DNA from: a virus
Lineage: Duplodnaviria; Heunggongvirae; Uroviricota; Caudoviricetes
Strand: one strand, 5' to 3'
IMG/VR virus record: IMGVR_UViG_2534682222_000011
DNA length: 13,754 nucleotides
Made by a program: the position numbers and the translations under genes. Shown piece by piece: positions 1,188-13,754 of this stretch. Below the pieces are notes generated by a model. That model was given only the letters and a program-made list of their open reading frames with translations, searched no databases and was not told the origin of the DNA. Position 1 is the stretch's first letter, and the number at the start of each line of letters is the position of its first letter.

Positions 1188-1904
1188 ATGTCGCGCATTT
1201 CTCTTAAACTGGCTGCTGTGTTTGGTGCTAATTATCCATGCAAAGTGGCCTAAGCTACGTGGAAGAATGATCAGTTTCGCATTATTTGGTTCAAGGAGGG
1301 CTCCCCCACAGCCTCACTCTCTGAATGCAAAACAGCCCCACAATCCCACTGTTAAAAGTCCCAGCTTGAAAATTGCACGCTTATGGTTGCCCCTCCCTCA
1401 ACTCTATAGCTCGCCCGCGCCCCCGTGTGCATGTGCGTGCCCGCGCGTCAGGGGTCGCTGAGAAACCCTAAGATTTTGCTCATCCGAGACAAGCATTACA
1501 GGAGCGTGCTACTGAGCGAGATGCTGGCTGATTGCTGTTGCTGAATAACCGTGTGGGACGAGTGCTGCGATCATCTGCCTTTCACTGTGTATCTGTACAT
1601 CCCTCTAAAACGATCTGTATCGCTCTGTGCTGCGTTCTGTGCTTCCAATGTGTGATTCAATGCCTTTGTGATTTCGAGATCGTGGCGGTGCCGTGCTGAT
1701 CTGCTGCGTGCGCTCTACGCTGTGTTCGCTGGATGTGCCGGGGAATGCTGCTGTGGGGCGGTGCCAGTCTCTTTCGGGTATACCTGATAAAGACATAGAC
1801 ACACTGTCTCATTTGACTATCTATAAAACTCTATTGACTACACATTATTGATGTGATCTCTTATAGGTCTTGCTGTGATATTTCATTGAGACTTAGGGGG
1901 AAGC

Positions 1905-2537
1905 ATGGCACACAATGCGCTTATCTATTGCCGCGCCAGTACATCAGAGCAACACGCAGACCGGGCGCTGGGCTTGCTGCGAGAGTTCGCCAGTGATCGG
2001 GGCTGGCCTGTACGGGCGGAGTACATCGAGAACGCCAGCGGTGCGAGGCTGGCGCGTCCTGAACTAATGCGCTTGCTGGATGATGCGCAGGCCGGAGAGG
2101 TCTTGCTTGTCGAGAGCATCGACAGGCTAAGCCGCCTTACGCAAAAGGAATGGGCGACACTGAAACAGAGGATTCAGGATAAGGGACTGGTGATCGTTGC
2201 CGTTGACCTGCCAACCTCATGGCAACTACTGAACGATACGGCGTCAGAGCTTACAGAGGGCATCCTGAGAGCTGTTAACGCAATGCTGATTGATATCCTC
2301 GCTACGATGGCACGAGTGGACTACGAGACACGCAGAGCACGCCAAGCGCAGGGCATCAAGCGTGCCAAAGCCGAGGGGAAATATAACGGGAAGTCTAAGG
2401 ATGAGAGCGCCCGTGAAACTGTCCGCGCTATGCTTACCGTTGGGAATAAACCAGAGCACATCATGAAAGCTGCCGGGATAAGCCGGGCAACGTTCTACCG
2501 TATCAAACGTGAGCTGTCCGCCAGCGTTACAGAGTGA
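1905..2537 (+). CDS. serine recombinase, resolvase/invertase family (210 aa)
   Basis: N-terminal catalytic motif LIYCRASTSEQ (Y-x-R-x-S-T-x-x-Q, presumed nucleophile Ser), SG...R...GEVLLVESIDRLSR core, and C-terminal helix-turn-helix (ISRATFYRIKRE), as in small serine recombinases. Purine-rich SD-like GGGGGAAG precedes the ATG. Confidence 0.9.
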   Translation: MAHNALIYCRASTSEQHADRALGLLREFASDRGWPVRAEYIENASGARLARPELMRLLDDAQAGEVLLVESIDRLSRLTQKEWATLKQRIQDKGLVIVAVDLPTSWQLLNDTASELTEGILRAVNAMLIDILATMARVDYETRRARQAQGIKRAKAEGKYNGKSKDESARETVRAMLTVGNKPEHIMKAAGISRATFYRIKRELSASVTE

Positions 2538-2953
2538 TGACCTACAGTCTGATGAGATGCCAGCACTGGCCGTTACTGGGCTGTGGGTGATGGATGGCCT
2601 ACAGCTTTTGTATTGATATCAGATATTTATGTTATGCCTAATCTCGTAATGGTATGATTTATAATGTATTTCCGTATTACTTGCGGCTCTTGATATGAAG
2701 AGATGGCGGGGCTTTAGCCGTGCCAGACGATGAGTATCAAGATCAGATTGTGAATGTGATTTATCACTGAACAATTCGAGGGATGGGGCAGGGGAAGGGA
2801 TCAAAGGCTGTGTTGTCCAATCACTCAGCTAGATTTGAAGCAGGGCAACACCTTCGTTTTACCTTTAAAGTTGCATTTAAAATACATGTACAGAAAAGGG
2901 TTCTTCCCTTTCATCCCTTCTCCTAATCAGTGTTATCGCTTTTCGCTCTACAC

Positions 2954-3023
2954 TGGCTGCGCTTCTCGCTATGCTCCAGCCCGCTCCATCGCCTTTGGCT
3001 CATTCCCGGCCTTCGCCCGCTGT
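2954..3023 (+). repeat. scrambled tRNA-Gly 3'-half-like fragments (possible decayed att scar / left junction)
   Basis: Contains GCTCTACA, CCCGCTCCA, ATTCCC and a 12-nt exact match CCTTCGCCCGCT to the tRNA-derived att at 13224-13251, same orientation but out of order. Confidence 0.3.
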
Positions 3024-3080
3024 GATGCTCGGCCCTCCACGCAACCGTGCTTGCCAGGCAGTCAACGCGGCGGGGATAGA

Positions 3081-3113
3081 GTAGTGGTACGGTACTATAT
3101 TGGGATATGGTAC
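3081..3113 (+). repeat. GGTAC direct repeats (candidate integrase arm-type sites)
   Basis: GGTAC at 3086-3090, 3091-3095 and 3109-3113. The reverse-complement motif ([C/G]TACC) is clustered at 13152-13182 next to the integrase start. Confidence 0.25.
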
Positions 3114-3427: not shown

Positions 3428-5272
3428 ATGCCAACGAACCTACGCCGTTTGCTTGCGCAGGCTGCCGACGCTGACCCGCTCAATACCGCAAACGCAGATG
3501 TACAGCAAATGGTCGCTGACGGGATTGTTATTCGGCGTTCCAAGATATGCCCGATAAAGCATAAACCCGTTAAGGCGGCATACAACACGAAGACCGAAGA
3601 GTTTTATTACAATGCTGATGGCTCCGCTATGACCCTGCGGGAATGGCGAGCGCTGCATGGTGTTCAACCGAAGAAGCAAAAACAGCGCTCTGACACGGGG
3701 TTGCGGCAAGTCATCCAGCCCGGTGACGCAATTCATTGCCGACGCGCTGAGATAGAAATGTGGCTCAACAAGAAGCCTGCTCGGTATGCTGACCCGCTGC
3801 CGCCTGATTTTCCCGGTGTTCGCGTAGATGATGCCGCATTGAAACCGCGCGAGCACGCCGTTTCGGCATCGACAACCGGGCAGAATGCTTTTCTCAAAGC
3901 CTGCCGCGAGTTCCTGATTTGTGATGAGAAGACTATACACCGCATCAACAGGGGCATGAATAAACTGGAAGCGATGCGCAATTCAGATTTCAAACGCTAC
4001 GGGGACTCAGCGGAGTTTCGTCAATTGTGGTGTGGAGAGTCGAAACCTACCGAGGATAAATTTAACAGTACAAATCATCATTGTGACCCAAACGGCTTGG
4101 CAGTGTCGCCGTCTGTGCCGTCACTGAATACAGCCTCTTATGAGTTTCGCCCGCTGGTTCGCTGTGACCGAAACGCACGCGTTAGCCTGTTGCCACCCGA
4201 TGGGCTGGAGTGGAGGCCGGGGCAGTTGTCTGTTGCTGATGCGATCTTCTCCCGTGGTAGTGATGTGCTGGCCGTTCTGCCTACGGGTTATGGCAAGACC
4301 GCCGCCTTCGCTTATCCATTGATTTATGAGTCCCGCGCTGGCGTTGGCCTGTCTGTAATCGTGGTTCCCACTAATACCCTAAAGCGCCAGATTCTCCGCC
4401 AGTTGCGGGATGCTGGCGTTCACGCTGTGGCATTCGGTGACAAGTTGCCGAGGCACCGCAACGCTCAACAACTCGCGGGGCTGGCTGCCGGGGCGTTCCG
4501 TGTTGCTGTCGTTTCACCTGAGCATCTTGTTCTGTCGAGTCAGGTCTTCGCGGCGCTGATGGCTTACGGCGTTGATCGTTTTATCATCGACGAAGCGCAC
4601 ACGGTTAAAGACTGGGATTTCCGACCCGCTTACGAGGCCATGCAGCACTCGCTACAACATGCCTTTCTTTCGGCTCAACGCTGCGTATTTACGGCTACGC
4701 TGCTACGCGAAAATGAGCGCAGTTTAATGGCGTCGCTTGGCTGCCGTGGTGATTACGTAACATTCCGTGCTGATGTTGCTCGCGAAAATATCCAGTTGAC
4801 GACAGTCAGACAGTGCCGCGAACGTTTCCGAGCGGCTATTGGTCTGGTCGAGGCTCTGCCGAAAGAAGAGAAGACGCTCATTCTCGTCAATGACCTTAAG
4901 ACGTTGCGGGCGTACCTGAAACTCTTAGGCGACCGGGCGCGCCCATATCACTCGAAGACGATGCACTTGAGTAACGAAGAACGCCACGCAAACGCTGAGT
5001 GGTTTGCCACTACGCCGGGCGCAATTCTGATTGCTACTAAAGCCTTCGGGCTGGGGGCTGATGTGCCAGACATTCGCAACGTCATCGTTACATATATTCC
5101 TGATGACCTGCCTGACCTCATTCAGATGATTGGACGAGCCGGGCGCGATGGTCAACCTGCCCGCGCGTTTCTGCTGTGGTCATCGCTGGCGCTGGATGCT
5201 GCGCCTGATGAGCTTGCTTACTTCTACCGCCCTGAAAACTGCAACTGGCAGTACATCGCTAAATACCTCTGA
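3428..5272 (+). CDS. SF2 DEAH-box helicase, RecQ-like core, with ~270-aa N-terminal extension (614 aa)
   Basis: Helicase motifs in order: LPTGYGKT (I/Walker A), VVPTNTL (Ia), IIDEAH (II), FTATL (III), LIATKAFGLGADV (V), QMIGRAGRDGQ (VI, RecQ-type). N-terminal part has an excisionase/AlpA-like winged-helix signature (TLREWRALHGV ... GDAIHCRRAEIEMWL). GGAG RBS 10 nt upstream of the ATG. Confidence 0.9.
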   Translation: MPTNLRRLLAQAADADPLNTANADVQQMVADGIVIRRSKICPIKHKPVKAAYNTKTEEFYYNADGSAMTLREWRALHGVQPKKQKQRSDTGLRQVIQPGDAIHCRRAEIEMWLNKKPARYADPLPPDFPGVRVDDAALKPREHAVSASTTGQNAFLKACREFLICDEKTIHRINRGMNKLEAMRNSDFKRYGDSAEFRQLWCGESKPTEDKFNSTNHHCDPNGLAVSPSVPSLNTASYEFRPLVRCDRNARVSLLPPDGLEWRPGQLSVADAIFSRGSDVLAVLPTGYGKTAAFAYPLIYESRAGVGLSVIVVPTNTLKRQILRQLRDAGVHAVAFGDKLPRHRNAQQLAGLAAGAFRVAVVSPEHLVLSSQVFAALMAYGVDRFIIDEAHTVKDWDFRPAYEAMQHSLQHAFLSAQRCVFTATLLRENERSLMASLGCRGDYVTFRADVARENIQLTTVRQCRERFRAAIGLVEALPKEEKTLILVNDLKTLRAYLKLLGDRARPYHSKTMHLSNEERHANAEWFATTPGAILIATKAFGLGADVPDIRNVIVTYIPDDLPDLIQMIGRAGRDGQPARAFLLWSSLALDAAPDELAYFYRPENCNWQYIAKYL

Positions 5273-5310: not shown

Positions 5311-5748
5311 ATGCCTGTTACCGAACATGCGCAGCGTCGTGCTACGCGTGCGGATGCGCTCGTCACCGCACAACTTGCCTTCGCCCTGAACGGATATTCC
5401 TTCGATGGGTTAGCTGAGCGCCACCGCCAGACTCTTAATCGTGCGGCCATCTTGCGCCAAGCTGGTACGCCGCTACAGCGGTATTGCCTGCTCAATCACT
5501 GTGAGCCTTGGGAATGTCTGGCCGCTGTGCTGAATAGATTCCGACGCCGGGAGGATGGCGCTCGTCTTTGGCCGACCTATCGCATGGCTCGTGAGGTCTT
5601 TAATGGGACTGTTCACCCTGCCAACAAGACGCGCGACGAGATATTTCAATCTGTGCAGCGTCGCCTCTTTTTACCAAAACCAGTACACGCCGAAGTAATC
5701 CAGTACCTGCGCGTAATGGGGCTGACAGGAGTTAATCCGCATGACTAA
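5311..5748 (+). CDS. hypothetical protein (145 aa)
   Basis: ORF with GGAG RBS about 10 nt upstream; first in a chain of overlapping, translationally coupled ORFs. Confidence 0.6.
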   Translation: MPVTEHAQRRATRADALVTAQLAFALNGYSFDGLAERHRQTLNRAAILRQAGTPLQRYCLLNHCEPWECLAAVLNRFRRREDGARLWPTYRMAREVFNGTVHPANKTRDEIFQSVQRRLFLPKPVHAEVIQYLRVMGLTGVNPHD

Positions 5749-5947
5749 AACCGAGTTTGAAAATGAAACGTGGCGAATGAAAGGCTTGCTTCTTGGGGCG
5801 CTAATCCGCCGCCTTGAGGAAGACAAGGCTGGTGAGTCGCGCATGGCCGCAGCGGAGTTATCCAGTGCGGTCAACTTCCTTAAGGCCAATGCCGTAGAAG
5901 CGCCGGACACGTCATTTAACCGTGTATTTGAGGATGACGAGCAATGA
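5741..5947 (+). CDS. hypothetical protein (68 aa)
   Basis: Start overlaps the end of the upstream ORF by 8 nt; GGAG RBS with the same spacing as the upstream gene; acidic C-terminus. Confidence 0.5.
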   Translation: MTKTEFENETWRMKGLLLGALIRRLEEDKAGESRMAAAELSSAVNFLKANAVEAPDTSFNRVFEDDEQ

Positions 5948-6120
5948 CACCCGCAGAGTTTAGAGCATGGTTTGCAACCCTGCCGCCGAACTATCAGAGC
6001 GCAGCACGAGCCATGTATGAAAGCGCCCGCAAGACGGGAACACACACCGCTTCCAGCCTGCTACTCATTCGCACGCTGATTGAAGATCAAATCAATTTCG
6101 ATGGAGACTTTACCTTATGA
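5944..6120 (+). CDS. hypothetical protein (58 aa), not in supplied ORF track
   Basis: Hand-translated: ATG at 5944 overlaps the upstream TGA (ATGA); uninterrupted to TGA at 6118-6120, which overlaps the next ATG at 6117 (ATGA). Fits the coupled-operon pattern. Confidence 0.4.
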   Translation: MTPAEFRAWFATLPPNYQSAARAMYESARKTGTHTASSLLLIRTLIEDQINFDGDFTL

Positions 6121-6680
6121 CAGTTCTGAGCCTGACCGATATCCAGCGCATCAATACCCTCGTTAAGCGCGACCTTCGCAATGTGGAAGAGGTAGTCGCT
6201 GCAACCGGATTTGACCCGGAGGACGTTGACGCGGTGCTGCGCGGCGTTTATGTAGCCGACCTTGCCAACCAGTGGAGGGATGAAGCCGCTATTACGCTGG
6301 AGGAATACAACGCCATCCGTAAGCGCTGGAAACCGGGGCGCGGCCACTGGGACACTGCACATGCCATTGCACGCGATTTTCTAATTCGGCCTGAAACTGT
6401 GCTGGCTATCGTCCATTCCCGCTTTAGCAACGCCCACACCCACCCGATGCCGAAAGCAGTTAAAGCAAAGCCTGAGAAACCGCAGACGATGCGCCGCCTG
6501 TTGAGCGCCGACCTCGATCAGATGCACAAGCTGGAGCGCTTCGGCTGGAAACAAACCGAGATCGCTGGGGAGCTTGGGATCTCTGCTGAGGCTGTTGCTC
6601 ATGTCCTGCGCCTGATGCGTAGCAAGTGGTCTTATCCAGATATTTTGGAAGACGTTAACACGCGATTCGGGGCTAAGTGA
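6117..6680 (+). CDS. hypothetical DNA-binding protein with C-terminal HTH (187 aa)
   Basis: C-terminal segment WKQTEIAGELGISAEAVAHVLRLM resembles a helix-turn-helix; start overlaps upstream stop. Confidence 0.65.
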   Translation: MTVLSLTDIQRINTLVKRDLRNVEEVVAATGFDPEDVDAVLRGVYVADLANQWRDEAAITLEEYNAIRKRWKPGRGHWDTAHAIARDFLIRPETVLAIVHSRFSNAHTHPMPKAVKAKPEKPQTMRRLLSADLDQMHKLERFGWKQTEIAGELGISAEAVAHVLRLMRSKWSYPDILEDVNTRFGAK

Positions 6681-6913
6681 TGGCAGAGAACGAACCGCTG
6701 CACCCTGCCGTTAACCCTGATCTCTATGTGAACCTTGACGAACAGCGCGAGGGATACGCCCCGTTTGAATCACGCGGCTGGGATGTGCTGACACAGAACC
6801 TGTCCGGGGAAGGGCGAACTGATCCCGGCCAAGCACCAAACCAGAATCCAAGGCAGCGACCGCGTGGCTCCGTTGGCGAGCGACGTTGGTTGCGTCGTCA
6901 TGGCCTTATCTAA
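6680..6913 (+). CDS. hypothetical protein (77 aa)
   Basis: ATG at 6680 overlaps the upstream TGA (TGATG); the ORF track's GTG at 6677 is less likely. Basic, Pro/Arg-rich C-terminus. Confidence 0.45.
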   Translation: MAENEPLHPAVNPDLYVNLDEQREGYAPFESRGWDVLTQNLSGEGRTDPGQAPNQNPRQRPRGSVGERRWLRRHGLI

Positions 6914-6927
6914 CTGAGGATTATTTC

Positions 6928-7167
6928 ATGAGCACCATTATTTTAATGGAGCCACGCCGCGCGGCTGATTGCGGGCAACAACTGAAATTCATTGCCGAAG
7001 CCTTGAATCTTCGTCAAATCGATTTGGCTCATGTGTACCAGATCGACAGACAAGATCTCGGCAAAGCGTACCACGGACAGAAGATGATTCCTGCCCGATG
7101 CGTACACGCGCACATGCTTTTACTTGAACTGGCACATCGCCGAGTTACATCACAAGAGGTTGCATAA
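6928..7167 (+). CDS. hypothetical protein (79 aa), possible small HTH regulator
   Basis: ATG at 6928 with GAGGA RBS 7 nt upstream, preferred over the TTG at 6886. Segment LNLRQIDLAHVYQIDRQDLGK is HTH-like. Confidence 0.45.
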   Translation: MSTIILMEPRRAADCGQQLKFIAEALNLRQIDLAHVYQIDRQDLGKAYHGQKMIPARCVHAHMLLLELAHRRVTSQEVA

Positions 7168-7169
7168 TC

Positions 7170-7856
7170 ATGGCTGACCAGAATGTTAATCCGTACCTTT
7201 CGGGCGCTGATACTGCGCCGCAGCAATCGCCGTACATGGCCGCACCTGTAGGCGCTGACAACGGCGCTAGCAGATTCGACCAGACAACACCTGATGCTGA
7301 TTTCCTGAAAACGCAGCCAGCGAACATTAATCAAAGCTGGAACGAAAGTAACTTTGCCAACCAGCAAGACCAGCAGATTGATGTTGCTGCGCAAGTGGGC
7401 GACACGCTGCAATTACAGGATGGCACTACTGTTGAGTTGACTCCTGAACTTCATGGGCTGATGGGGCAGTTTCACCAGTCTGTCGAAAGCCAGCTAGGGC
7501 AGGGGACAGTTGACGCGATGTTGCAGTACGCTGGCACGCTCGACGCCGGGACGCAATCAACCCTTGAACGGATGGTTATGTCTGGCGACCCTGCGCAGAT
7601 GCAGCGGGCGGTTCATTATCTGCAAGAGCGTATGGTCGCAGGCACTGCGACTGGTTATGTCCCATCACAGGGGAACCCATACGGCCAGCCTGCCTCGCAA
7701 CCTGTTGGTATGTCTCATGCTGAGTTTATTGCAGCGTATGATCAGCTTTCGCAGTGGGCGCAGCAATCAGGGTATGGCCCCGGCCATCGCCAGTACGACG
7801 ATCAATACCGCGCTCTGGTTGCGCAGCGCTCCGCTGGCAAACGCGCTGGCCGTTAA
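7170..7856 (+). CDS. hypothetical Gln/Ala-rich acidic protein (228 aa)
   Basis: AAGAGG RBS 10 nt upstream of ATG. Q-rich, acidic, low-complexity composition of the kind seen in scaffold or decoration-type proteins, but no diagnostic motif. Confidence 0.65.
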   Translation: MADQNVNPYLSGADTAPQQSPYMAAPVGADNGASRFDQTTPDADFLKTQPANINQSWNESNFANQQDQQIDVAAQVGDTLQLQDGTTVELTPELHGLMGQFHQSVESQLGQGTVDAMLQYAGTLDAGTQSTLERMVMSGDPAQMQRAVHYLQERMVAGTATGYVPSQGNPYGQPASQPVGMSHAEFIAAYDQLSQWAQQSGYGPGHRQYDDQYRALVAQRSAGKRAGR

Positions 7857-7916
7857 GCAATCGCCTGTCCTGTCTTCCCCACGTCTTAACCTTACGTTTT
7901 AGAGCCTGAATCGCGT

Positions 7917-7936
7917 TGTACATCGCCAGATGTACA
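7917..7936. promoter_or_regulatory. TGTACA-N8-TGTACA palindromic repeat pair (candidate activator/operator site)
   Basis: TGTACATCGCCAGATGTACA lies in the 160-bp intergenic gap between the 228-aa and 115-aa genes. Confidence 0.3.
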
Positions 7937-8015
7937 TTCGTATACCTGCACCTGTAAAACGCGAAATTACCTCTCAAACACCACACATAAACCCACTTTG
8001 CATTGAGATCTGACA

Positions 8016-8363
8016 ATGACCTTACTGACACCTGAAAACGTGGCAGCGGCTAGGGCTGCCCGTAGCGCGAGGATTGAACACTGGAAAGCCAACGCCAGCC
8101 AGCTTAAGCAGGACTTTGCTGACGAAGCGCACTGGCGGCGGCTCGCCTCACGCTTCGGCGTGCGTATGCCCTCGGCGTATGTTCCCGGCTCCGAGCTGCG
8201 ATTGCTGCGCCGGGCGGCCAAACGCGCGGGCATCTCTGGTGCTGATATGCGCGATGCTTTTGGTGGGGGCGTTGCGCACCTGCACGAGCTTAATCCCCAT
8301 TGGCCTGCCTTCGCGCTTATCGGCCTGATTCTTGAGATCGCGGCTGAAAAAGCTGCTGCCTGA
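8016..8363 (+). CDS. hypothetical protein (115 aa)
   Basis: ORF after an intergenic gap; Ala/Arg-rich; weak RBS. No recognisable motif. Confidence 0.55.
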   Translation: MTLLTPENVAAARAARSARIEHWKANASQLKQDFADEAHWRRLASRFGVRMPSAYVPGSELRLLRRAAKRAGISGADMRDAFGGGVAHLHELNPHWPAFALIGLILEIAAEKAAA

Positions 8364-8431
8364 TTCATCCCATTCTCTTTTCCCCTTTTCCATAAATCGC
8401 GCTGGCTAACGCTGGCGCGGGAGCTATTTCT

Positions 8432-9427
8432 ATGACTGACAATGTTTATACCCCTGACCAATTCCGCCCGCACTGGGGCGGTGTAGATGCTGACAACGAC
8501 ATTCACATTGAAGCGTATGACCGGGACGTTCAGACCCGCCTTGAGGCAAAGAGCGTGTTTCTCGCCGAGGGGCTGAGCACATACAAGCCGCTGAAAAACA
8601 GTAATCAGTATCGTGTAGACCGCCTGAGCGGAGATCTGGAGGTGAAGGGCAGAACCGCAGGGCAATCGCTGGAGCCTACCGCCGTTAAGTCGGACAAGCT
8701 GATTATCTCTGTGGATACGCTGAGCTATATCCGCATCCCGATTGACTATCAAGACGACTGGACAGCGCCCACCTTTCGCGCAGAGCTGAGCCGCAACATG
8801 GGGACAGCCCATGCAAAGTTCTACGACGAAGCGCACACTATCCAGCTAATCAAAGCGACTGACTTTGTACCGCCGCCTACGTTGCAACCAACGTTTAACC
8901 CGCTGACGGATAATGTTGTCTCGCTCGACCTGACAACGGGGAGCGAAGAGGATGCGGCTAACGAACTGGTTCACGCTATTAAAGCTGCTGTTAATCGATT
9001 CCTAACTGAAAAAGATATTCCGGTGGCGGAGCTGTGCCTTCTCATCGACCCAGCTTGGTTCAGCATCCTGATGGAACATAAGAAGTTGATGAACGTCCGT
9101 TACAGCCGGGATAGTGGCAATGATTACGCATGGCGTCGCGTTGGCTATGTCGCTGGGGTGCGAGTTATTGAGCTGAACAGTTACCCGCAGGAAGCCATTA
9201 CCGCGCATGAACTGGGCGCTGATTATGATGTGACCGCAGGGGAAGCGCTGACACGGGCGACGCTGTTCCGGCCTGCGTCTGTACTTGTGACAGTCGAAGC
9301 GCAGAGCGTTATCAATCGCCAGTGGGATGATGAACGCGAAATGACAATGGTGATGGACTCATATCGCCTGTTCAATGTTGGGCTGCGCCGCCCTGACTGC
9401 GTTATAAATTTCCGACAAGCTGCATAA
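8432..9427 (+). CDS. hypothetical protein (331 aa), possibly structural/morphogenetic
   Basis: GGGAG RBS 8 nt upstream of ATG. Largest protein of the late-region-like block; no catalytic motif seen; role inferred from context only. Confidence 0.7.
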   Translation: MTDNVYTPDQFRPHWGGVDADNDIHIEAYDRDVQTRLEAKSVFLAEGLSTYKPLKNSNQYRVDRLSGDLEVKGRTAGQSLEPTAVKSDKLIISVDTLSYIRIPIDYQDDWTAPTFRAELSRNMGTAHAKFYDEAHTIQLIKATDFVPPPTLQPTFNPLTDNVVSLDLTTGSEEDAANELVHAIKAAVNRFLTEKDIPVAELCLLIDPAWFSILMEHKKLMNVRYSRDSGNDYAWRRVGYVAGVRVIELNSYPQEAITAHELGADYDVTAGEALTRATLFRPASVLVTVEAQSVINRQWDDEREMTMVMDSYRLFNVGLRRPDCVINFRQAA

Positions 9428-9443
9428 CAAAAGGGGCCGAGCC

Positions 9444-9971
9444 ATGAATATTGATGCTTATGCCCCGGAGCTGTTGCGCTCTTTGTTTCGGTACGATGCG
9501 AAGACTGGCCGCCTGTTCCATGCAGTAGACCGGATCGGAGCCAACAAGCGGATTTACGCTAAAGCCGGGGAACTGGCCGACACGGTAACGGACAGCGCCG
9601 GATATAGGCGCGTATCTGTCCGCATCAATGGCAAATCTCATGCGCTATACGCCCACCGTGTCGCCTTCATCATTGCTAATGACGGTATCCCTGCCGGGAT
9701 GCAAATCGACCATATCAACGCGGTACGCGATGACAACCGCCTTATCAATCTCCGCACGGTTACGCCACAAGAGAACCAGCACAATTACCGCAAAGCCAAG
9801 GGTTATAGCCACCATGCCTGCTCTGGCAGATGGGAGGCTTACATTCGCGTTGGTGGTGTTCGCCATCACCTCGGCTTATTCACTACCGAAGCGGCGGCGC
9901 GTGCTGCGTACCTGAAAGCTAAAGCCAGATACCATCCGTCAACGCCAGCCGATTTATTGCAGGCTGCCTAA
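9444..9971 (+). CDS. HNH endonuclease with C-terminal AP2-type DNA-binding domain (175 aa)
   Basis: HNH_3-like motif (YRRVSVRINGKSHALYAHRVAFIIANDGIPAGMQIDHINAVRDDNRLINLRTVTPQENQHN) followed by AP2-like GRWEAYIRVGGVRHHLGLFTTEAAARAAY. AAGGGG RBS upstream. Confidence 0.85.
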   Translation: MNIDAYAPELLRSLFRYDAKTGRLFHAVDRIGANKRIYAKAGELADTVTDSAGYRRVSVRINGKSHALYAHRVAFIIANDGIPAGMQIDHINAVRDDNRLINLRTVTPQENQHNYRKAKGYSHHACSGRWEAYIRVGGVRHHLGLFTTEAAARAAYLKAKARYHPSTPADLLQAA

Positions 9972-9989
9972 TCCTCGGAGGTTCCATTA

Positions 9990-10415
9990 ATGGCTGATGA
10001 AAAGCCGATTAGAGCGCTGGCAGATGATGACCCGCGCCGCCAGCGGTACGCTGAACTGTTGGCGCAGGCTGGCCGCATGACTATTCCACGGCTGCATCCG
10101 GGCGATGCTAACAGTGTTATGAGTCAGCTTGCGACAATGCTCGGAGCACCTGTCCCGATAGTAGGTGCTATGACTGAGCACGCCGCTGCATGGCGTGCCT
10201 GTCTTCTGGAGCAAGGGCTTGGTGATCTTCTGGATGGCTTGAGTAAGCAGGTGCTGACCATCTTCTTTCTGCTCTGCTGGAGAGACAGCGCCTTGCGATT
10301 GGCGGGTAAGCAAAAGGAACGGTTTGCAGCGGCCAGCGAGGGTTTGACCATTGAGCAATACCGGGCAATGCACCCGGCTTACAGAGAGGATAAAGAAAAT
10401 GATAACCACGATTAA
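9990..10415 (+). CDS. hypothetical protein (141 aa); position suggests a small-terminase-like or packaging-redirection protein
   Basis: Strong GGAGG RBS 8 nt upstream. Functional guess rests only on its place directly downstream of the HNH endonuclease. Confidence 0.6.
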   Translation: MADEKPIRALADDDPRRQRYAELLAQAGRMTIPRLHPGDANSVMSQLATMLGAPVPIVGAMTEHAAAWRACLLEQGLGDLLDGLSKQVLTIFFLLCWRDSALRLAGKQKERFAAASEGLTIEQYRAMHPAYREDKENDNHD

Positions 10416-10698
10416 ATTAAGGTGGCGGTACATCGAGCCGCCACCAATGACTGGCGCACTCGCTGACCTGAAACAGTGGGTAATGGATACCGGAGAGCCT
10501 GAGCTTGAAGCTAAATTTCGTAAGCTGCTGGGGCTGATGCGCCGCAATGGTATCAGTGACGAACGTGTTAATGCGATGGCCGCCGAGCTTTATGCTCTGG
10601 TATGCCAACGCCAGCGCGAAGAATACGAAGCCTGCAAACGGGCTGCATCTGACAGTGGAGGCTTTGAATCATGGTTACACGGACAGACCAACTACTAA
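10399..10698 (+). CDS. hypothetical protein (99 aa)
   Basis: ATG at 10399 preceded by GAGAGGA RBS and overlapping the upstream stop region; preferred over the in-frame ATG at 10351, which lies 65 nt inside the upstream gene. Confidence 0.55.
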   Translation: MITTIKLRWRYIEPPPMTGALADLKQWVMDTGEPELEAKFRKLLGLMRRNGISDERVNAMAAELYALVCQRQREEYEACKRAASDSGGFESWLHGQTNY

Positions 10699-11108
10699 GA
10701 AAAGCGATGCGAGGCTATCTGGAATATCTCGGCAACATGCCGCTAGCGGAACGCATTAAAAATTCTGCTGCGTTCGATGATGTGTATCACTTCCTGTTGA
10801 ATGGTTCAGGACGGCTGGAGTTGCGCCGCGCTGATGTGGCCGCTGTCCGTGTCTTCCTGTGGAATTATCAATACCGACGCTGCGCGGTGACAGCTAAGCC
10901 GCTACGCCTCGCGTCTGCTGTATTGGATCACTGTCACCGAACTGGACGTGTGCGCGCTGTGGTTCATCGTTCGGCCAATGCAGCGGAAGGTGGTTATTAT
11001 GTGGGAAATTTGTGCGGACTCTCACGAAGTAGCATGTTAAGCATGCTACCTGCCTACCGCCGACAATACAAGGGGTTGGGCGTTATTTATCCAAGACAAC
11101 ATGCGTGA
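10671..11108 (+). CDS. hypothetical protein (145 aa)
   Basis: GGAGG RBS 9 nt upstream of ATG; overlaps upstream ORF by 28 nt. Confidence 0.55.
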   Translation: MVTRTDQLLRKAMRGYLEYLGNMPLAERIKNSAAFDDVYHFLLNGSGRLELRRADVAAVRVFLWNYQYRRCAVTAKPLRLASAVLDHCHRTGRVRAVVHRSANAAEGGYYVGNLCGLSRSSMLSMLPAYRRQYKGLGVIYPRQHA

Positions 11109-11309: not shown

Positions 11310-11519
11310 ATGAACTTTGATATGCGTACAAACCAAAATTGTGCATCGTTTTTTAACCCAGCAACCAAGGCGTTTGTCGTCGTTGATTCGTTTGACAACT
11401 ACGAATTCGATGTGCGTGCTGGTACTTTATCACGCACTGAATTTGTAGGCACCATCACAGCTTCAAACGATGAAGAGTTGAACAAGAAATTAGCTGAGAT
11501 CACGGCTGCACACATATGA
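11310..11519 (+). CDS. hypothetical small protein (69 aa), cassette gene A
   Basis: Very strong RBS (AGGAGG, 5-nt spacer); AT-rich codon usage unlike the upstream block; stop overlaps next start (ATGA). Confidence 0.6.
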   Translation: MNFDMRTNQNCASFFNPATKAFVVVDSFDNYEFDVRAGTLSRTEFVGTITASNDEELNKKLAEITAAHI

Positions 11520-11890
11520 TAACTCAACAGCAGATTGATGATTTAGTTGCAGATATTAACGATATCTTGGAAGAAGATAGAGCCAAGCTAAAGATGTCAT
11601 TTCATTTTGCTGTTGATAGACTTAATGATCCGCGTAATAAACCTCCAATCACGTTAGCTGAGTTGAGAGTGATTTTTACAAATTTCATTGGACAACACTT
11701 GCAGACAATTCTAGGCAAAGATGAGGGATTTTCCTTCACTATCAAGTGTCAGAAATCTGGTATTGCTATACCGTGCGCTATAGAGCATGAACTTGATATC
11801 GGTGCAAAGTGGGTAGTTCAGCAAGTGATCACCATCATGCGGAATCCGCAGTTTAACGCGTATCATGGTGATGTCATCTTTGATGTTTAA
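11516..11890 (+). CDS. hypothetical protein (124 aa), cassette gene B
   Basis: Translationally coupled to gene A; followed by a canonical intrinsic terminator. Confidence 0.65.
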   Translation: MITQQQIDDLVADINDILEEDRAKLKMSFHFAVDRLNDPRNKPPITLAELRVIFTNFIGQHLQTILGKDEGFSFTIKCQKSGIAIPCAIEHELDIGAKWVVQQVITIMRNPQFNAYHGDVIFDV

Positions 11891-11893
11891 AAG

Positions 11894-11916
11894 AAAGGCG
11901 CTATAGCGCCTTTTTT
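11894..11916. terminator. rho-independent terminator, plausibly bidirectional
   Basis: Hairpin AAAGGCGC-TATA-GCGCCTTT followed by a T6 run on the plus strand; the complement reads hairpin plus TTTCTTTT. Abuts the integrase stop codon. Confidence 0.7.
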
Positions 11917-13135
11917 ATAAACACGGATAACTGACCAACTCCACATACTCCCATAGTTCTTTCATCCCTGCTCCCTTGCTATATGTCCTGAAAGCTTCCG
12001 TTTTAGCTTTTTGTTCGGTATGCCCGGTTATTGCCCCTATGCGCTGTTCTGGTACTCCTGCTCTGTCTAAGCAAGTAATAAAGTGACCACGCAGGGAGTG
12101 GAAGCATTGGCGATCTGTAGCCGCTGACAGCACGCGACGGCGTAGCCGTGTAAATGCCTGCGAGTACCACGGGCCACGCTTACCGTCGGCACGTTTAATC
12201 TTGTTCGATTGGGGGAGCAGGTATTCACCGTTGTTCTGCGCAAGGTATTTATCAACGATGCTGATTAACAGCGAGTGTATGGGGACGTGCCTTACACCCG
12301 CTTTAGTTTTAGATTTGCTGACGTAGAAGCAGCGTACCCCTTCAACTTTGATAATCTCAACTCGTTTGATGCTGGCGATTTCGTCGAGACGCATACCGGA
12401 ATACAAACCGATTATGATTACGTCTCGTATCTCGCTACCTGCCTCTTTTATTAATGCCTGTAGCTGGTGTAGTTCAAAAGGTTGATAACTTTCGTTCGTC
12501 TGGCGGGCTTCCAGATTGTGGCCGTGAAAGGGATTATCAGGGGCGATATTGTCATATTTACGCCGGGCGAAGTCATACAGCGTCCCTAAGCAGGTTAACC
12601 AGTTTTGCAGCGTCTGGCGGGAAAACTTATCTTGGTTCGCTTCCAGAAAGTCAGAGACGAGCCGCCGCCCGATTCCATTTATTGTAATGGTTGGGCGTTT
12701 TATTGAATTAGTAAATGCCGATACAGCGCGAACTGATTTACTCAGCGTGGAATAAGAGCGCCGATCTTTGTATTGCTCTGCATATTCTTTACTGACATCT
12801 GTCAATTTTGGTGATGCTGGTTTTCCCCGCTCTGCTGGAATAGTTGCGGGTGTGGTAATGCTGCTGGATACCCCCGCCAGCAAGTGAAGATCTGTTACAG
12901 CGGAATGAATCCGGGTAATGGGGTTATCCGGTTTCATCATGAGCTGTAGCTTACGGAACTCTAATAAATATTGGTCACGGAAAATGCGAGCTTGCATGAT
13001 GTCCCGTGTGCCTGTCGATTTCTTGAGCGAGCGCCGCCCGTTCCAGAGGTGGCGCATGTAGACCGGAATATAGATTTGAAAGATGAATATCCCATCTTTG
13101 TTTGCATAAAGATAAGAAGTCTTCTTGATTGGCAT
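11915..13135 (-). CDS. int: tyrosine site-specific integrase (406 aa)
   Basis: C-terminal catalytic region with HSLRGHF (box II-like) and a downstream Tyr (RTYSKG). ATG at 13135 with AAGG RBS preferred over the TTG at 13165 used by the ORF track. Adjacent to the tRNA-derived att. Confidence 0.9.
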   Translation of the reverse strand: MPIKKTSYLYANKDGIFIFQIYIPVYMRHLWNGRRSLKKSTGTRDIMQARIFRDQYLLEFRKLQLMMKPDNPITRIHSAVTDLHLLAGVSSSITTPATIPAERGKPASPKLTDVSKEYAEQYKDRRSYSTLSKSVRAVSAFTNSIKRPTITINGIGRRLVSDFLEANQDKFSRQTLQNWLTCLGTLYDFARRKYDNIAPDNPFHGHNLEARQTNESYQPFELHQLQALIKEAGSEIRDVIIIGLYSGMRLDEIASIKRVEIIKVEGVRCFYVSKSKTKAGVRHVPIHSLLISIVDKYLAQNNGEYLLPQSNKIKRADGKRGPWYSQAFTRLRRRVLSAATDRQCFHSLRGHFITCLDRAGVPEQRIGAITGHTEQKAKTEAFRTYSKGAGMKELWEYVELVSYPCL

Positions 13136-13151
13136 GGTAATTACCTTGTAA

Positions 13152-13182
13152 TCTACCGCTACCAACTACCGGGATAAGTACC
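13152..13182 (-). repeat. clustered (C/G)TACC(G/A) repeats between int start and att (candidate arm-type sites)
   Basis: CTACCG, CTACCA, CTACCG and GTACCG within 31 bp; mirror the GGTAC repeats at 3086-3113. Confidence 0.3.
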
Positions 13183-13223: not shown

Positions 13224-13251
13224 GAGGGTTCGATTCCCTTCGCCCGCTCCA
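13224..13251 (+). repeat. att site: 3' terminal 28 nt of a tRNA-Gly gene (T-arm, acceptor 3' strand, CCA)
   Basis: GAGGGTTCGATTCCCTTCGCCCGCTCCA has a T-stem/loop (GAGGG-TTCGATT-CCCTT), 7-nt acceptor strand CGCCCGC, discriminator T and CCA. It matches the 3' end of E. coli glyU as I recall it. No 5' half is present upstream. Confidence 0.7.
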
Positions 13252-13484
13252 ATTTATCTTCACCTCATCAATCTGCCATTTTTGCTGTATCTGATTTTCT
13301 ATATTATCTTAATTCAATCGCTTCAGACTTTTCGCAATCGCCGTAATATTTCCCCATTTTGTTGTAAATAAAAAGCGTTTACGCAATGCAATCCTTTTGT
13401 AACAACCCAGGTAAAACACCTTATTTTCAAGTTGTTAAATAAGTGGTTATCTACGCTTTTAACAAACGATTGATGGAATATTTT

Positions 13485-13634
13485 ATGAAAGGGAAATCTG
13501 CATTAACTCTTCTGCTCGCTGGTATATTTTCGTGCGGCACATGCCAGGCGACAGGGGCAGAAGTGACGAGTGAATCTGTATTTAACATTCTTAATTCCAC
13601 GGGGCAGCAACAGATAAAAGTTATTTATCGTTAA
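13485..13634 (+). CDS. small secreted protein/lipoprotein-like peptide (49 aa) in the chromosomal flank
   Basis: N-terminal signal-peptide-like MKGKSALTLLLAGIFSCGTCQA; lies outside the att site in AT-rich flank. Start at 13485 chosen over upstream in-frame ATGs. Confidence 0.4.
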   Translation: MKGKSALTLLLAGIFSCGTCQATGAEVTSESVFNILNSTGQQQIKVIYR

Positions 13635-13754
13635 ATCCAGATAAGTACCCTAATTATCGTCTTCTGATTCACTCAGCCAAATTAAAAAATGAAATAAAGA
13701 GCCACTATACCAAAGACGAAATTCAAGGGTTGTTAACATTAACAGAAAACACGG

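Follow-up and report, generated by a model that had tools for sequence, protein, structure and literature searches.

Known phage satellites follow one of two strategies. P4, the Staphylococcus aureus pathogenicity islands (SaPIs) and the phage-inducible chromosomal island-like elements (PLEs) steal the coat of their helper phage, and the capsid-forming phage-inducible chromosomal islands (cf-PICIs) bring a full head and packaging kit of their own and steal tails only. We analyzed a stretch of 13,754 nucleotides (IMG/VR virus record IMGVR_UViG_2534682222_000011, hereafter the window, to which all coordinates refer unless another locus is named) that covers most of a 14,414-bp island integrated in the Escherichia coli chromosome. 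A first-pass annotation, made from the sequence alone, had singled out the block 5311–11108 as a satellite-like element. We propose, with a probability of about 0.7 and on the basis of sequence comparisons, that the island is an integrated phage satellite parasitizing virulent Bonnellvirus-like phages (T7/phiKMV-type, Autographiviridae).

Like the cf-PICI EcCIEDL933, the island is an Enterobacteriaceae element of about 15 kb with its own capsid, HNH and small-terminase-like genes, and it would depend on a helper for the remainder of the virion. The cf-PICIs steal tails only and carry the int-alpA-pri/rep module of phage-inducible chromosomal islands (PICIs) (bioRxiv 10.1101/2022.09.08.507074). 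In contrast, the island lacks protease, portal, connector, and large terminase genes (no Pfam or PHROG match, no open reading frame [ORF] of portal size), and in place of the protease it encodes a scaffolding protein. It also has genes for a serine recombinase and a RecQ-like helicase. Its capsid protein belongs to the T7/phiKMV lineage, and a terminal-repeat junction takes the place of the cos site. No AlpA, primase, or Rep match was obtained for the island, in which the RecQ-like helicase is the candidate replication protein.

P4 shares with the island the integration at a tRNA gene, a length of about 0.35 of the helper genome, the copy of a helper packaging site, and the expected use of the helper terminase, portal, and tail; leuX, P4's own integration site, is also used by several relatives of the island. 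However, P4 has no capsid gene, reshapes the P2 coat by the external scaffold Sid, and carries alpha, delta, psu, and cos. None of the island proteins gave a Pfam, PHROG, or NCBIfam match to the alpha primase-helicase, Sid, Delta, or Psu. The SaPIs and classical PICIs are likewise phage-dependent elements with an integrase and small-terminase redirection, some of them with scaffold-like size determinants (CpmB), but they use the helper capsid protein, temperate siphovirus helpers, and pac or cos packaging. Their Stl/AlpA regulation and Pri-Rep replication modules were not found in the island. The PLE of Vibrio cholerae, a satellite of phage ICP1, makes small capsids by means of the satellite-encoded scaffold TcaP (PMC10945586). 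Its helper is strictly virulent, as would be that of the island. Unlike the island, it steals the helper coat, its integrase is of the large serine type, and its initiator is RepA_N; the two elements have no homologous genes. No RepA_N match was found in the island, the integrase of which is of the tyrosine type and the sole serine recombinase of which is a 210-aa protein of the resolvase type.

The island thus behaves like a satellite, with an incomplete set of virion genes, an integrase with attachment (att) repeats, and a packaging signal of helper type, but it belongs to none of the described families that we considered. This agrees with the first-pass annotation, which had recognized neither P4-type nor capsid-forming PICI features; the family scans did not reveal their markers. 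The likeness to Bonnellvirus phages comprises the capsid protein, the C-terminal domain of the scaffold, an endonuclease VII motif, the junction, and probably the N-terminal half of the small terminase. These phages differ from the island by their RNA polymerase, DNA polymerase, portal, tube, core, fiber, and large terminase genes, none of which is present in the island, and by the absence of an integrase.

Head genes and the predicted packaging junction

The 331-aa protein encoded at 8432–9427 (+ strand) is, judging from its sequence, a major capsid protein of the Autographiviridae type (HK97 fold). It matches phrog_267 (E = 2.8e-67) and, over residues 1–330, the Autographiviridae capsid chains 23sf, 8eld, and 8vb0 of the PDB (E = 5e-78 to 2e-61), the last one being the capsid chain of Pectobacterium phage phiM1. 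Among 50,697 phage records, the best matches are Bonnellvirus phages of E. coli and other Enterobacteriaceae (among them Lidtsur, forsur, J8-65, altidsur, Kc261, and ROV85), with 56–58% identity. Bonnellvirus capsids likewise rank first among 759 phage records. Sequence similarity also identifies the 228-aa protein (7170–7856, +) as a head scaffolding protein (phrog_1018, E = 5e-5), in a shortened form. Island scaffolds measure 225–231 aa versus 280–411 aa in phages and are consistently 20–45% shorter. The island and phage scaffold profiles nevertheless align over the C-terminal 100 aa, the coat-binding region (97.7% probability, E = 2e-12), and share a motif at the extreme C-terminus.

A third gene (5741–5947, +) encodes a 68-aa protein similar to small terminases of the T7 gp18 type over their N-terminal half. 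The match to PF11123 scores 21.1 bits (gathering cutoff 27.5) and spans profile positions 12–48 of 79. The same profile matches five of five divergent members of this protein family with E values of about 3e-4, under the gathering cutoff. PHROG comparison (phrog_891, E = 0.004) and hhalign against the Lidtsur small terminase (79% probability, E = 1.5e-5) gave matches of the same kind. The first-pass annotation had seen no capsid-forming signature in the block and thereby overlooked these three genes. The hidden Markov model searches that it suggested for structural homologs recovered the capsid and scaffold proteins and the small-terminase-like protein, but no complete structural and packaging set.

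Large terminase, portal, and tail genes had been reported as absent, and this is borne out by ORF sizes and by Pfam and PHROG searches: no ORF in the window has a fitting size or motif, and the only ones longer than 331 aa encode the 614-aa RecQ-like helicase and the 416-aa integrase. Such genes are also missing from every relative compared or listed. When 18 Lidtsur proteins were used as tblastn queries, the island loci matched the capsid protein only. Conversely, wherever a phage contig carries a related capsid gene, portal and tube genes adjoin it. Two sets of contigs were evaluated as possible free forms of the element and dismissed. The IMG/VR capsid relatives of 10–16 kb all derive from genuine phages, as fragments that include portal and tube genes, and are not packaged satellites, and the Logan contigs of 14.5–15.2 kb are not excised forms, as they end in att repeats.

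The second link to Bonnellvirus is a noncoding segment at 1359–1445 (+) that we interpret, from its alignment, as homologous to the concatemer junction of these phages, that is, as a pac-like junction mimic. A blastn comparison of the whole window with the whole Lidtsur genome detected the capsid gene and this motif only (motif E = 1.8e-6). The segment aligns across the start, or left boundary, of the annotated 259-bp terminal repeat of J8-65, and to Lidtsur 40868–40953, an intergenic position after the endolysin gene. Local alignment scores are 52–55, versus 21 ± 3 for shuffled sequences. In total, ten islands and six Bonnellvirus phages, J8-65 and five others, align across the junction, and the phages carrying it are the same set that gave the best capsid matches. 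The J8-65 junction reads ...CCCGGCTTGAAAATTG-N17-CCTCCC^TCGACC..., where ^ is the physical left end of the genome. That of the island reads TCCCAGCTTGAAAATTG-N18-CCTCCC^TCAACTC..., followed by a CCCCCGTG box that J8-65 also has. On the strength of the alignment to the start of the J8-65 repeat, we predict a cut between positions 1397 and 1398 (..CCTCCC^TCAAC..), which would give the left end of the packaged DNA. The 44-bp motif 1359–1402 forms a sharp left edge of conservation in ten of ten aligned relatives. Its variable middle, TTGCACGCTTATGGTTGC, has no phage counterpart when searched alone. Downstream, a GC-rich stretch of the GTGCTGCG type (1398–1770, +; right boundary guessed) may be the satellite's equivalent of the terminal repeat, as suggested by its composition and by the CCCCCGTG box, which resembles that of the phage repeat. 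A res site was also considered for the sequence following the motif and was rejected, as this sequence does not co-vary with the recombinase allele.

An element with its own coat, scaffold, and junction copy, but without portal, packaging motor, and tail, most likely steals those from Bonnellvirus. Phages of this genus are virulent Autographiviridae with complete genomes of 40.8–42.5 kb, and E. coli K-12 served as the isolation host of the candidate helpers. The proposal of the first-pass annotation that the block parasitizes a helper is therefore strongly reinforced by the missing portal, terminase, and tail genes, by the junction mimic, and by the naming of Bonnellvirus, even though its argument from "late-type small genes" was partly wrong.

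Extent, spread, and size of the island family

The 5.8-kb block 5311–11108, which had been taken for the element, is only its middle. The island extends over about 14.4 kb, with an integrase and att sites, from the tRNA-Gly gene glyU to attR. The attL site corresponds to the 3' end of glyU (positions 6809–6836 of locus L001, NZ_LR536431) and, with the left ~1.2 kb of the island, lies outside the window. The attR site (13224–13251, +) is a 28-bp exact repeat of this tRNA 3' end. At this far end of the island, a tyrosine integrase gene (11915–13165, − strand; 416 aa; PF00589, E = 6e-10; phrog_1, E = 9e-36) adjoins attR and is convergent with the operon. The E. coli genome NZ_LR536431 is 100% identical to the window over the aligned parts, which represent 91% of the window, and RefSeq calls the same genes. 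However, this copy lacks 549 bp (window 2492–3040), including the recombinase C-terminus and most of a conserved noncoding region, and its integrase ORF is interrupted within the 5' end by an IS1A (window position 13124). It follows that the window shows the element in its intact form and comes from another genome or assembly.

By megablast with the block 5311–11108, related islands were found in 59 of 5,426 complete E. coli genomes. Enteropathogenic E. coli (EPEC) E2348/69 carries a relative at leuX with a different integrase, at about 4,847,340–4,862,400 of NC_011601. A search based on the capsid protein added Enterobacter, Kosakonia, Trabulsiella, and Kluyvera, and homologs of a 141-aa core protein added Cronobacter, Citrobacter, Phytobacter, and Klebsiella michiganensis. 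The family occupies two tRNA sites, glyU and leuX, with different integrases, those of the leuX-located relatives being of another type and 37–38% identical to the window integrase.

Conservation was analyzed across 10–12 loci. The syntenic core comprises, in order, the genes for the helicase, the 145-, 68-, 58-, 187-, 78-, and 79-aa proteins, the scaffold, a variable slot, the capsid protein, the HNH endonuclease, the 141- and 99-aa proteins, and endonuclease VII. The loci differ in a mosaic fashion in which alleles of the recombinase and HNH genes they carry, which gene fills the slot, what cargo the ends hold, and which type of integrase is present. The 13 conserved core genes are all under purifying selection (dN/dS 0.07–0.26), the capsid gene among them (dN/dS 0.074), which indicates that the array does not consist of chance ORFs. 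In a divergent lineage from Enterobacter hormaechei (L102), the core proteins are 33–60% identical to those of the main lineage, the gene order is kept, and the portal and large terminase genes are equally missing. The only conserved noncoding DNA between the two lineages is the junction motif (77% identity) and the att core.

These observations are difficult to reconcile with the decay of a temperate Autographiviridae-like prophage that would have lost its portal, terminase, polymerase, and tail genes and would no longer be mobile in particles. The 13-gene core has the same order and intact frames at more than 14 loci, which represent several genera and both tRNA sites, with low dN/dS for each gene. 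No trace of a portal, tail, or polymerase pseudogene was detected by tblastn with Lidtsur proteins, and the helicase, the recombinase, and eight core proteins have no Bonnellvirus counterpart. The island capsid protein is 57% identical to phage capsids as opposed to 92–97% within the family, and the size of the element is held within narrow limits, as described below. Decay would account for the phage derivation of the capsid, scaffold, small-terminase-like, endonuclease VII, and HNH genes, and the NZ_LR536431 copy, with its deletion and adjacent IS1, fits it as well. So does at least one truncated left-end remnant, inspected at leuX (L106, NZ_AP022811 5,128,295–5,135,000), that has kept cargo, motif, and recombinase, has lost the core from helicase to endonuclease, and lies next to a truncated integrase and insertion sequence debris. 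As the junction motif is present in 147 E. coli genomes versus 59 with the capsid block, about 90 further genomes may hold the same kind of remnant. On balance, we find it very improbable that the island as a whole is such a relic.

Despite the variable cargo, the att-to-att length ranges only from 14,414 to 15,158 bp, in the eight cases where the sequence gave either the two att ends or the length of the entire contig. This corresponds to 0.34–0.37 of the helper genome length. With a ratio of about 0.35, P4/P2 and SaPI1/80alpha form T=4 heads as opposed to T=7. By analogy with these pairs, the equal ratio leads us to predict small capsids sized for ~15 kb, a prediction to which we give even odds. 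The lengths also suit a variant of the satellite explanation, which is not a true alternative to it, where about three copies per head are packaged in full-size helper or mixed capsids and the island capsid and scaffold outcompete or modify helper assembly. Three island lengths amount to 43.2–45.5 kb, near the helper genome size, which favors this variant. Chung and Hinkle are reported to have found in 1990 that plasmids with the T7 concatemer junction are packaged in T7 as genome-length concatemers, a result in favor of the same variant. Against it, the total for three copies is 2–7% larger than the helper genome, with the terminal repeat still to be added; island scaffolds are consistently shorter than those of phages; and, as far as is known, the well-studied satellites with a ratio of 0.35 all make T=4 shells. 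Packaging of three copies is unlikely in our opinion, although it deserves to be kept in mind.

The end slots of relatives carry cargo of defense or accessory type, such as genes for TIR and ThsB_TIR proteins, a DNA methylase accompanied by an NmeDI-like endonuclease, a DUF3800 protein, Rap1a, and a pRha-domain protein (L101 114–1058 and 11999–12613; L104 11528–13679; L100 1–381; L102 2427–3068). The TIR, ThsB_TIR, and DUF3800 genes and the restriction-modification pair would be expected in an unpackaged integrative defense island that spreads by other means, and in which the capsid, scaffold, and small-terminase homologs and the junction would act as decoys against Bonnellvirus assembly and terminase. 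The HNH endonuclease and endonuclease VII could then attack phage DNA, and interference with helpers is known from described satellites. Yet a decoy needs neither a complete and strongly conserved capsid protein nor a scaffold that matches it and has kept its coat-binding C-terminus intact. Decoys would also leave unexplained the tight size of 14.4–15.2 kb and the conservation of the cut position to the nucleotide across lineages with proteins 33–60% identical, and family scans revealed no conjugation or mobilization genes that could explain the spread across genera. We consider a defense island of this kind improbable.

Several observations weigh against a packaged satellite of Bonnellvirus, which we nevertheless favor. 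No virome or particle-derived contig of the element was found, its two IMG/VR entries being predicted prophage or chromosomal contigs, and a search of viral contigs for the island-specific motif gave no match. The motif, with at least 80% coverage, also occurs in about 90 E. coli genomes that fall outside the 59 with the capsid block; if the L106 remnant is typical of these, the element often decays. Eight conserved core proteins have no assignable function, and the small-terminase match lies under the Pfam curated cutoff. The arguments for small capsids are the size ratio and the short scaffold. No repeat boundary, origin, excisionase, or repressor was identified in the island. A promoter for the helper RNA polymerase was sought with Lidtsur repeats and Lidtsur intergenic regions and gave no convincing consensus.

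Other genes, noncoding region, and flanks

The block 5311–11108 contains same-strand genes for proteins of 145, 68, 58, 187, 78, 79/93, 228, 115, 331, 175, 141, 99/115, and 145 aa, many of which overlap by 4–8 bp at their starts and stops. The co-oriented array of overlapping small ORFs described initially is thus real, as RefSeq has the same genes and they are under the selection reported above. Profiles of ten core and slot proteins, eight of them without an assigned function, were compared with all 55 Lidtsur proteins. Matches were limited to the scaffold, the small terminase, and a weak one (63%) of the 145-aa protein encoded at 5311–5748 to gp51.

The first gene of the block (5311–5748, +) encodes a conserved core protein of 145 aa without family match, 66–94% identical in relatives (dN/dS 0.17). 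Its similarity to the 63-aa Lidtsur gp51 (L004 39251–39442), encoded between the terminase and lysis genes, is weak (hhalign 63% over 29 columns; tblastn 44% over 34 aa). Conservation and selection also identify core proteins of 58 aa (5944–6120, +), of 78 aa with a GTG start (6677–6913, +; 85–99% identity in relatives, dN/dS 0.16), and, in addition supported by RefSeq calls, of 79 aa (6928–7167, +) and 99 aa (10399–10698, +). The 187-aa protein (6117–6680, +) is kept in all relatives, including L102. Weak matches to HTH_ParB, HTH_23, and sigma-70 r3/r4 at residues 139–176 indicate a C-terminal helix-turn-helix, which would suit a regulator that binds DNA or a protein that binds the packaging site. 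The variable slot that separates the scaffold gene from the capsid gene is occupied in the window by a 115-aa gene (8016–8363, +; phrog_21723, E = 1e-52) found in some relatives only; others have an unrelated 137-aa gene at this place. The 141-aa helical protein (9990–10415, +) is highly conserved and island-specific. It matches 42 protein clusters, the organism-named sources of which are all Enterobacteriaceae and every name of which is "hypothetical". Its AlphaFold2 model is poor (predicted local distance difference test score of 60) and unfit for a fold search.

Downstream of the capsid gene, the 175-aa protein (9444–9971, +) is an HNH_3 endonuclease of the homing-endonuclease type (Pfam E = 1e-13; phrog_99, E = 3.5e-48). 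It had been described as an HNH-AP2 endonuclease; the HNH domain is clear, and the AP2 domain is marginal (14.4 bits, cutoff 33.3). In L102, the HNH gene sits upstream of the helicase gene. An IMG/VR contig of an Autographiviridae phage encodes a 40% identical HNH protein between its scaffold and capsid genes (L050 2539–2970), which fits a descent of the island gene from a capsid-associated homing endonuclease. That the island HNH protein cuts helper DNA is a speculation. Three small proteins had been noted after it. The function of the last one was missed: this 145-aa protein (10671–11108, +) is an endonuclease VII-type junction-resolving nuclease (PF02945, E = 2.8e-6; phrog_423, E = 2.5e-15) that shares a motif with the Lidtsur endonuclease VII.

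Upstream of the array lies the gene for the RecQ-like superfamily-2 helicase (3428–5272, +; 614 aa; Pfam DEAD, E = 2e-22; Helicase_C, E = 2e-14), kept in all relatives. It matches RecQ in the PDB (7e-31) over residues 261–585, and its N-terminal extension of 260 aa is unique. Its presumed function is in replication or concatemer formation. The helicase also matches one PADLOC sub-model of DpdF (PDLC02858) with 888 bits over the full model length. The match stands alone, with no other dpd gene nearby, and we dismissed a Dpd (7-deazaguanine) defense system. The sub-model was probably built from helicases of such islands, and defense-finder tools may for this reason mislabel island helicases. Further upstream, a small serine recombinase of the resolvase/invertase family (1905–2537, +; 210 aa; Pfam Resolvase, E = 6.8e-25; phrog_125, E = 3e-40) occupies a position that is always filled in relatives, by alleles that are just 26–97% identical. 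We infer a role in the resolution of multimers or in the circularization of injected DNA.

The gap between the recombinase and helicase genes contains a noncoding region of ~550 bp (2551–3096) that is kept in seven to ten of ten relatives with ~90% identity across genera, better than many flanking genes, and is nearly invariant at 2676–2820. Single-base indels exclude that it is coding. It has no Rfam match, is absent from L102, and could be an origin or a regulatory region. An Rfam scan of the window (E up to 1) detected nothing besides the tRNA-like att core, and scans for sigma-70 promoters and terminators gave results at or under chance level.

Both ends of the island carry variable cargo. 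On the left (1–1358, +, continuing to attL), small genes at 193–420, 417–878, and 969–1187 gave no match in PADLOC, Pfam, and PHROG searches, and none is kept in relatives except 417–878, found in E2348/69. On the right (11310–11890, +), genes of 69 and 124 aa, the latter matching phrog_14518, are absent from relatives, where TIR/ThsB-like or restriction-modification genes occupy this slot. No function was recognizable by family searches in the cargo of either end (193–1187 and 11310–11890). The flank 13252–13754 reflects the location of glyU, which has the degenerate ETT2 type III secretion region as its neighbor. In a relative (L003 20856–23693), this region comprises ygeQ and pseudogenized type III secretion genes; in NZ_LR536431, the island and an IS1 stand in its place. 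For more than 5,200 E. coli genomes, the match to the window is partial only, presumably through the chromosomal flank. A known phage is ruled out, as a megablast search with the window against the 50,697 phage records gave no match.

Proposed life cycle and implications

We infer all functional steps of the following cycle from sequence. Upon Bonnellvirus infection, the island would excise and amplify into concatemers; the helicase would cooperate with replication proteins of the helper or the host, and the DNA would be debranched by endonuclease VII. The island capsid protein and the short scaffold would assemble on the helper portal into capsids that are probably small (T=4) and sized for ~15 kb. 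The helper large terminase, possibly redirected by the small-terminase-like protein of the island, would recognize the junction mimic, cut between 1397 and 1398, and package unit-length island DNA. The helper core, tail tube, and fibers would complete the particle. After entry into the next cell, the DNA would circularize and insert at a tRNA gene. As by-products, one would expect the island to interfere with its helper and to carry defense genes in the end slots.

We see an evenly balanced case for regarding the island as the founding example of an undescribed family combining all these traits: an own coat and short scaffold forming T=4 heads, a stolen portal, core, large terminase, and tail, and packaging through a junction mimic. 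In the literature that we covered, which is incomplete so that an earlier description is possible, no Autographiviridae satellite with its own capsid gene is described. To our knowledge, no satellite of T7-like (Autographiviridae) phages was known in E. coli.

If this interpretation is true, an element that brings only a coat, a scaffold, and a small-terminase fragment, fitted onto a foreign portal, motor, and podovirus tail, would represent a third satellite strategy and raise questions on the compatibility of portal and coat and on the control of capsid size. The system is open to testing, with a relative in the reference EPEC strain E2348/69, candidate helpers isolated on K-12, and a cut site predicted to the base. 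T7-like phages are obligately lytic models and common therapy candidates, which would give practical weight to interference and gene transfer by satellites. Defense cargo would be moved among Enterobacteriaceae during lytic infections, and the islands would interfere with a phage family widely used in therapy.

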